From assembly GCF_057098645.1 (NCBI RefSeq), contig NZ_CM169472.1: 64,000 nucleotides of DNA; one strand, written 5' to 3'. The position numbers and the translations under genes are program-made. Below the pieces are notes generated by a model that saw only the letters and a program-made list of their open reading frames with translations, had not been told where the DNA came from and ran no database searches. Shown in pieces: positions 37,583 through 38,189 of the stretch. The number at the start of each line of letters is the position of its first letter. Position 1 is the stretch's first letter.

Positions 37583-37808
37583 ATCAGGTGAAACTGACCG
37601 ATAAGCCGCTTTCTTTTGGGTCTAGCGTCGTGGACAGTCATTCATCTTTCTGCCCCTCTAAAAGCAAAAACCCGCCGAAGCGGGTTTTTACGTAAATCAG
37701 GTGAAACTGACCGATAAGCCGCTTTCTTTTGGGTATAGTGTCGTGGACAGTCATTCATCTTTCTGCCCCTCCAAAAGCAAAAACCCGCCGAAGCGGGTTT
37801 TTACGTAA
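37583..37808 (-). repeat. Two tandem 113-bp repeats downstream of rnpB, each copying the rnpB 3' end plus a terminator hairpin
   Basis: Units 37583..37695 and 37696..37808 are near-identical and each contain aaaacccgccgaagcgggttttt; the rnpB 3' end (from 37809) is a third, partial copy. Confidence 0.85.
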
Positions 37809-37811
37809 ATC

Positions 37812-38189
37812 AGGTGAAACTGACCGATAAGCCGGGTTCTGTCGTGGACAGTCATTCATCTAGGCCAGCAATCGCTCACTGGCTCAAGCAGCCTACCCGG
37901 GTTCAGTACGGGCCGTACCTTATGAACCCCTATTTGGCCTTGCTCCGGGTGGAGTTTACCGTGCCACGGACTGTTACCAGCCGCGCGGTGCGCTCTTACC
38001 GCACCCTTTCACCCTTACCTGATCCCGCTTGCGCGGGCCATCGGCGGTTTGCTCTCTGTTGCACTGGTCGTGGGTTTCCCCCCCAGGCGTTACCTGGCAC
38101 CCTGCCCTATGGAGCCCGGACTTTCCTCCCCTCCGCCCGTCTCCCCCGAAGAGGACGACGACGAAGCGGCGACTGTCTGGTCAGCTTCG
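37812..38189 (-). ncRNA. rnpB: RNase P RNA (M1 RNA)
   Basis: Reverse complement reads gaagctgaccagacagtcgccgcttcgtcgtcgtcctcttcggggga.. through ..ggtcagtttcacct, matching M1 RNA as recalled. Confidence 0.9.

Follow-up and report, generated by a model that had tools for sequence, protein, structure and literature searches.

The tandem 113-bp repeat array behind rnpB in Escherichia coli: probable fail-safe termination, unequal recombination and extra landing sites for islets

In Escherichia coli K-12, the 3′ flank of rnpB is said to contain a 113-bp sequence repeated 3.5 times, as reportedly described by Reed and Altman in 1983. A literature search on rnpB combined with tandem repeats or terminators found nothing specific. 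Another array of this kind reportedly exists at E. coli tyrT, where a 178-bp unit is said to occur ~3.1 times downstream of the tRNA-Tyr gene (work attributed to Egan and Landy in 1978 and to Rossi et al. in 1981); each unit reportedly opens with the 3′ end of the tRNA, and a small basic ORF is said to have been noted there. At rrnB, T1 and T2 are tandem fail-safe terminators behind a stable-RNA operon. Partial duplications of the 3′ end are a feature of tRNA and tmRNA genes that serve as attachment sites of genomic islands. A related case is the flk genomic islet of E. coli H3 and H47 strains (Feng et al. 2008, as described in PMC3378880), in which the tyrosine recombinase Orf486 excises the islet between flanking direct repeats (PMC3378880).

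The locus described here lies in a 64-kb stretch of E. coli DNA, which is called the window throughout. The array in the window is a common allele of the known E. coli rnpB repeat array, and the feature itself was already known. The order garK–rnpB–array–yhaC, the period, the unit content and the hairpin are the same as in K-12, and the units are ~97–99% identical to those of K-12 derivatives. In the K-12 derivative (L002 in our numbering of loci) and in C600 (L045), the flanking garK, yhaC and REP pair are as in the window and the units differ by a few bases. The preliminary description of the window had named the repeats as a known feature of the K-12 locus, and the same array is indeed present at garK–rnpB–yhaC in K-12 derivatives, with one unit more. 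The window differs from K-12 by this one unit (2.5 copies by TRF, where K-12 would have 3.5) and by a few substitutions, one of which interrupts the old ORF frame in the last unit with a stop codon. With rrnB T1–T2 the array has in common that at least two intrinsic terminators stand in series behind a strongly transcribed stable-RNA gene. Unlike those of rrnB, the terminators at rnpB are near-identical, lie in a recombining repeat that duplicates a part of the gene, and differ in number between strains. The likeness to tyrT is one of architecture: directly behind a stable-RNA gene stand tandem units that open with a copy of the gene's 3′ end. The period, the sequence and the type of terminator are different. 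As in the flk islet and at the tRNA/tmRNA attachment sites, the target of the tyrosine integrase at rnpB is a short core within the 3′ end of the stable-RNA gene, and an flk-type islet at rnpB brings in a substitute 3′ end and has direct repeats at both junctions. The 113-bp units differ from such island-associated duplications as they have no islet DNA between them and no likeness to islet arms, and the window is free of islets. Our reading, to which we give a probability of roughly 0.85, is that the window contains the 3′ end of rnpB and its well-known tandem array, which would provide fail-safe termination, vary by unequal recombination and offer extra landing sites to islets.

The gene is rnpB and the repeats behind it are its 113-bp array. 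The cmscan search revealed a complete RNase P class A RNA (RF00010) with a score of 318.6 bits and an E-value of 1.7e-103, the gathering score of the family being 100. The match spans model positions 1–367 of 367 without truncation, and this full-length covariance-model match upholds the earlier identification of the gene. The repeats had been said to follow rnpB, which is correct in the sense of the RNA, but they lie at lower coordinates in the window since rnpB is on the minus strand. Over 1,051 bp the locus shows 100% identity to E. coli O145 str. RM9872, and the RefSeq genes at the RM9872 locus are tdcR, yhaB, yhaC, rnpB, garK, garR and garL. The −10 hexamer of the predicted rnpB promoter ends 7 nt 5′ of the first base of the RNA; the site is promoter-like, and its function as the rnpB promoter is suggested by the match to the consensus (Table 1). 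The gene yhaC, with its stop codon at 37315, is AT-rich (28–36% GC), and its transcripts would enter the repeat array from the side opposite to rnpB. The GC content of the yhaB–yhaC region (window 35000–37400) is 28–41%, vs 50–60% for rnpB and garK, and the region differs among strains, being deleted in those of the UTI89 type and frameshifted or IS-disrupted in several others. Its features suggest horizontally acquired DNA that is decaying.

Table 1. Positions of the features of the rnpB locus in the window, with strand and basis of assignment.
Feature	Position	Strand	Basis
garK (glycerate 2-kinase), directly upstream of rnpB, same strand	38221..39366	-	RefSeq annotation of identical sequence
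Putative rnpB promoter: GTGACA, 17-nt spacer, TATACT	38196..38224	-	consensus scan, 10/12 matches
rnpB (M1 RNA gene), 377 nt, complete	37812..38188	-	Rfam RF00010; RefSeq label on identical O145 RM9872 sequence
U0, 101 nt, the gene's own founding copy: M1 3′ end (37860..37812), trailer, T1, spacer	37760..37860	-	alignment
U1, 113 nt, complete pseudo-copy: altered M1 3′ end, trailer, T2, spacer	37647..37759	-	alignment
U2, truncated; head intact, terminator decayed (AAACCGTTCCGGCGGGTTT at 37555..37576)	37555..37646	-	U1/U2 alignment
GGCTTATCGGTCAG (P1 3′ strand) with 12-bp att core CTTATCGGTCAG, inside rnpB	37820..37833	-	motif search
GGCTTATCGGTCAG with att core CTTATCGGTCAG, in U1	37707..37720	-	motif search
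GGCTTATCGGTCAG with att core CTTATCGGTCAG, in U2	37594..37607	-	motif search
T1, symmetric A5/CCCGC-loop-GCGGG/T5 hairpin; UUCG loop in rnpB sense	37779..37802	.	repeat coordinates, folding
T2, hairpin identical to T1	37666..37689	.	repeat coordinates, folding
Inverted REP pair (BIME)	37431..37459 and 37495..37529	opposite orientations	sequence coordinates, genome-wide copy number
Terminator-tail remnant (AAACCCGCGTCGATAAGTTTTTGCTTTTGG), then distal flank TGCACAGGGTAAGATGAAT	37358..37413	-	direct-repeat family D3; local alignment to U1 tail
yhaC, convergent to rnpB	36128..37315	+	ORF list, RefSeq annotation, base composition

The tandem array is real and stands well above chance. With TRF, 2.5 copies of period 113 were detected at 37555..37834 (score 504), matching at 95% and free of indels. 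Self-comparison, which had been proposed as the check on tandem periodicity, was run on 37520..37880 and gave a clear peak at lag 113, where 74.6% of the positions match vs ~33% at unrelated lags. A 46-mer specific to the repeat was counted twice in the 64-kb window, and none of 100 shuffles contained it. The preliminary description had claimed two nearly identical 113-bp units and a partial one, and the two units, 37583..37695 and 37696..37808, are identical at 110 of 113 positions, with mismatches at 37622, 37626 and 37659; the hairpin AAAAACCCGCCGAAGCGGGTTTTT is present in both, as T2 and T1, respectively. The figure of two and a half copies agrees with TRF, but the half is the gene's own founding copy, and once a 12-nt indel is allowed for, homology to rnpB extends as far as 37860, beyond the end given by TRF.

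In the sense of the RNA, on the minus strand, the units start with GATGAATGACTGTCCAC at 37860, 37759 and 37646, and the repeat unit begins within rnpB, at GATGAATGAC. The unit contains the last 49 nt of M1 RNA, a precursor trailer of ~36 nt with the symmetric intrinsic terminator, and a 19-nt spacer. The 49-nt segment is J18/2 together with the 3′ strands of P2, P4 and P1. Global alignment of U0 with U1 revealed one 12-nt gap and three mismatches. The downstream heads read AAAGCGG where rnpB has ACCCGG, a CC-to-AG change in the segment that, following the established structure of M1 RNA, is the 3′ strand of P4, a helix of the catalytic core. The head of U2 has two further substitutions compared with U1, one of which creates TAG in the old ORF frame. 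As RNase P class A RNAs the repeat units fail, having the last 49 nt only, with the 12-nt insertion, and lacking the intact P4 3′ strand ACAGAACCCGG, and when the array flank was searched alone the RF00010 match was to the gene's own 3′ end only. The downstream copies are pseudo-3′ ends that are probably unable to replace the true 3′ end, because they have the 12-nt insertion and the CC-to-AG change in the P4 strand. The claim that the repeats copy the 3′ end of rnpB is right as to homology, but the copies are inexact, with a 12-nt insertion and two substitutions.

The predicted folds of T1 and T2 have the form of an intrinsic terminator, CCCGC-UUCG-GCGGG followed by the U-tract UUUUUGCUUUU. 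For T1 the folding energy is −19.4 kcal/mol in the rnpB sense (z −4.1 against shuffles) and −13.9 kcal/mol in the yhaC sense (z −3.4); the corresponding values for T2 are −19.9 kcal/mol (z −5.3) and −13.9 kcal/mol, and all of them are clearly lower than in shuffles. These folds, stable on both strands for both hairpins, are in agreement with the proposed two-way shape of the terminator. Flanked as they are by an A-tract and, opposite it, a T-tract, T1 and T2 would also halt convergent yhaC transcription. The notion that each unit joins an RNase P RNA end to a symmetric hairpin is valid for T1 and T2 but not for the third hairpin (37555..37576), which is degenerate: its −6.5 kcal/mol was equalled by 165 of 200 shuffles. 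Neither T1 nor T2 was flagged by a rule-based terminator scanner, probably since the stem is extended through A/T pairs and too few T remain in the tail. T1 of rnpB serves as a characterised intrinsic terminator part (PMC3643576). Some units of the E. coli loci L006, L009, L044, L048 and L049 have another terminator allele, CCCGCCAGCGTAAACYGGCGGG, whose stem-loop is longer; it is at times found in the gene's own unit, and neighbouring units may differ in hairpin type. It is the sole terminator form in the E. coli species representative, E. whittamii and Escherichia sp. E1V33 (L013, L024 and L029).

The REP pair sits between the decayed terminator of U2 and the remnant terminator tail. REP/BIME elements are imperfect palindromes of ~35 bp that occur, in many cases as inverted pairs, hundreds of times in an E. 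coli genome. A query that included the REPs matched a median of 36 places per E. coli genome (at least 40 pieces in 2,352 records) vs a median of 1 without them, and the region gave sub-threshold Rfam matches to the REP-derived families ES036 and naRNA4. The REP block looks like a later insertion into or beside the last terminator because O157 AR-0429, W4 and UTI89 are without it. The distal flank TGCACAGGGTAAGATGAAT terminates every E. coli array examined, and in strains without extra units it directly follows T1. In E. coli G3X16-2 (L009, 115–1095) the transposase gene of IS621 (IS110-family) was observed just past the first REP downstream of the array, where it takes the place of the yhaC side; IS621 targets REP sequences.

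Copy number was counted as the number of P1 3′ motifs GGCTTATCGGTCAG, that of rnpB itself included, and the array was read in 20 E. coli loci. The preliminary description had called the copy number variable between strains, and one to five motif copies were found, with four in K-12 and three in the window. One copy is present in UTI89, NRZ94505, SCU-313 and AVS0717; two in O157 AR-0429, W4, O78 strain 3, 21AH057, G3X16-2, 675SK2, Ecol_545 and EC-10; three in the window (and O145 RM9872) and 873.10; four in the K-12 derivative, C600 and 2018-06-4CC; and five in ET761 and SK6988. In the 20th locus, that of isolate 12, rnpB is split by an islet. For a wider view, 60 records evenly spaced among 5,425 matching records were classed from alignment geometry, and at least one member of nearly every copy class was confirmed by sequence. 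The classes of one to five copies comprised 16, 15, 8, 16 and 4 records, with one record islet-disrupted, and these counts estimate the composition of the database, not natural frequency. Extra units are absent from about a quarter of the E. coli genomes sampled, UTI89 and 536 among them, and therefore the back-up terminators are dispensable.

Arrays beyond E. coli were sought in one exact-pattern scan of species-representative genomes for two P1 3′ motifs 85–115 nt apart. It revealed arrays of the same architecture in the genomes of 33 species, with at least 13 named genera of enterobacteria represented. These include E. coli, E. whittamii, another Escherichia species, Citrobacter, Klebsiella pneumoniae ATCC 13883 (L035, 8036–8164), Enterobacter (for example, Enterobacter sp. 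10-1, L034, 5592–6139), Kosakonia, Cedecea, Buttiauxella, Lelliottia, Yokenella, Atlantibacter, Phytobacter, Superficieibacter and Huaxiibacter. Across the 33 genomes the periods are 105–128 nt and the copy numbers 2 to at least 6, and the unit start GATGAAT is common to all. Compared with the downstream units, that of the gene itself is usually short by ~12 nt (11–18 nt in most genomes examined), and the insertion-type head is present in every downstream unit of the 33 species and the 20 E. coli loci. Alignment of 30 first-downstream units from different species revealed that the segments common to rnpB are invariant, that the unique insertion is partly conserved and that the spacer is unalignable. 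Between the main sequence types, conservation of the unique 12 nt is only ~50%, and inspection by eye of the non-gene segment of 12–18 nt found a 3–4-bp CGC/GCG core only and no convincing covariation. The A-tract, hairpin and U-tract are kept in all 30 units, with several stem sequences and folding energies of −11 to −25 kcal/mol. The terminator halves of U0 and of the downstream units have a mean identity of 88% within a genome vs 64% between genera. A query of all E. coli genomes with a synthetic junction, the spacer followed by the gene-type head, was meant to reveal de novo duplications and gave two-piece matches that join the gene's own head and the next spacer. From the overall pattern we infer that the insertion-type head arose once, long ago, and that the arrays then evolved in concert by unequal crossing-over. 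Enterobacterial-type rnpB arrays were observed in L032 (labelled Chryseobacterium sp. 18061) and in L042 (a 289-bp contig labelled Microvirga antarctica), which are likely cases of assembly contamination or mislabelling.

Integrase islets were found at rnpB. In E. coli isolate 12 (NZ_CM194533.1; L054, 1355–8891) an islet of 7.5 kb is inserted in the 3′ end of rnpB at CTTATCGGTCAG. Its genes encode a 486-aa tyrosine integrase, a YagK/YfjJ protein, a recombinase, a flagellin and a fliC repressor, and it matches the flk genomic islet. A substitute rnpB 3′ end comes with the islet, and the native end, T1 and the repeats have been moved to the far junction. The core bounds this islet (at 1355 and 8880) as well as an insert in Cedecea sulfonylureivorans (L014, at 4563 and 7561), and it occurs three times in the window (Table 1). 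Of 5,426 complete E. coli genomes, 31 have islets with the same left end at rnpB, and at least three integrase variants occur among them; in all 30 records listed among these 31 matches the position is rnpB itself, whose core corresponds to 37820..37833 of the window. Islets at rnpB were also seen in L055 and L056, and the 31 genomes include related islets with other integrase variants and cargo. The Cedecea insert, of 3.0 kb (L014, 4563–7572), lies in the first downstream repeat unit, not in rnpB, and its ends match those of the E. coli islet over 52 bp at 98% and over 68 bp at 84%. Judged by eye, this insert seems to contain PAAR/bacteriocin-like and immunity-like ORFs, and no integrase gene was recognised in it. 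Every unit of the array appears to carry a usable attachment core, because the Cedecea insert with the same ends sits in a downstream repeat, and with the core in every unit the array would offer extra landing sites for islets. The window array itself has no integrated element and is uninterrupted from rnpB to the REP pair and yhaC.

The most likely role of the array, judged from predicted structure, is fail-safe two-way termination between the convergent rnpB and yhaC. T1 would stop most of the rnpB transcription and T2 would catch the read-through. The array would grow and shrink by unequal homologous recombination or by replication slippage between units. Unequal recombination would duplicate downstream-type heads only and mix their tails with that of U0; because of this, all downstream units would keep the 12-nt insertion and yet have gene-like terminator halves. 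The conservation of the downstream hairpins could then be a free by-product of homogenisation with a selected T1 and not the result of selection on the hairpins themselves. A more far-reaching proposition, that the array is an old and actively retained feature of Enterobacteriaceae rnpB loci and not an E. coli curiosity, we regard as unlikely. An ancestral duplicate kept in at least 13 genera, though easily deleted and not regenerable, would imply selection. As candidate reasons, a very strong stable-RNA promoter might call for fail-safe termination in both directions, or spare attachment sites might buffer the essential rnpB against islets targeting it.

Given the dispensability of the extra units in many strains, a purely neutral array is a serious rival to the termination role, and we hold it to be quite possible without thinking it probable. 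The array would then be the by-product of an old tandem duplication that drifts in copy number, with terminators kept by recombination that copies T1. The absence of extra units from 16 of the 60 sampled records fits well with such drift, and at least two distal flanks indicate that there was probably more than one loss; the decayed distal unit with the REP pair after it, the unconserved ORF of the unit and the tails homogenised with U0 point in the same direction. Nevertheless, the insertion-type head is common to arrays in at least 13 named genera, which indicates a single old origin, and the last extra unit, once lost, cannot be remade with such a head. In bacteria, direct repeats of ~100 bp often give rise to deletions between them, so that long persistence without selection would be unexpected, and a strong hairpin was present in all 30 first-downstream units examined. 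The array could also be kept as spare attachment sites, the units acting as decoys that spare the essential rnpB, or the pseudo-copies could be scars of integration; both are rather improbable in our estimate. The decoy idea is consistent with the core in every unit, with the islet inserted at the core in rnpB of isolate 12, with the 31 of 5,426 genomes that have islets of the same left end at rnpB, and with the Cedecea insert in the first downstream repeat. It is at variance with the position of all 30 E. coli islets listed among the 31 matches, which are in rnpB itself, and with the substitute 3′ end that islets supply, which leaves rnpB undestroyed and in no need of protection. The units as attachment scars of islets were rejected since the right arm of the islet is unlike the head of the repeat unit; moreover, the uniform 113-bp periodicity is a signature of local amplification and not of serial integration.

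The original description of the E. coli rnpB repeats reportedly proposed that they encode small basic peptides. In the window an ORF of 38 codons (MNDCPRHYTQKKAAYRSVSPDLRKNPLRRVFAFRGAER) runs from ATG at 37758 to TGA at 37642 with GGAGG before the start. ORFs of 34 and 38 codons start from the ATG of GATGAAT in U0 and U1, the GGAGG is 9 nt 5′ of the ATG, and the stop and the next start overlap as ATGA, all of which is what a series of translated peptides could look like. The frame, however, ends after 9 codons in 11 of 30 species, is shifted in Klebsiella and Yokenella and has AGG as one of its starts, the unit lengths of 105–128 nt have no codon periodicity, and U2 of the window has an in-frame TAG at codon 8. 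The ORF also lies behind a strong terminator and no RefSeq gene is annotated in the array. The coding hypothesis was rejected as the frame is broken in many species, and we consider it highly improbable. Equally improbable is a role for read-through RNA, which would pair with the M1 5′ strand (P1/P2) or act as an Hfq-bound fragment via AAAAGAAAG and the terminator. It could draw on the invariance of the P2 and P1 3′-strand segments in the downstream units of 30 species, on the nearly invariant AAAGAA of the non-gene segment and on the terminator hairpin with U-tail at the end of every unit. But the invariant segments are exactly those in common with rnpB, which gene conversion explains, the unique 12 nt are poorly conserved (~50% between main sequence types), the units contain no promoter-like site, and strains without extra copies are viable. 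In an Rfam search of the flank with a permissive E-value, the repeat units gave no family above threshold, sRNA families included; the look-alikes RsmY, istR and isrB were sub-threshold and terminator-like. Against these alternatives, we retain two-way fail-safe termination as the most likely role of the array.

The window itself is a standard E. coli rnpB locus with a common allele of the array described in the early 1980s, and by itself it matters little. The cross-genus distribution and the observation of the attachment core are modest additions that may already be in the older literature. For E. coli, the rnpB array is a strain-variable marker (1–5 motif copies), a likely site of misassembly in short-read genomes, and a recombination substrate beside an essential gene. 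The architecture common to many enterobacterial genera and the integrase core in each unit, which is also that of the flagellar phase-variation islet flk, bear on why stable-RNA genes carry such arrays.
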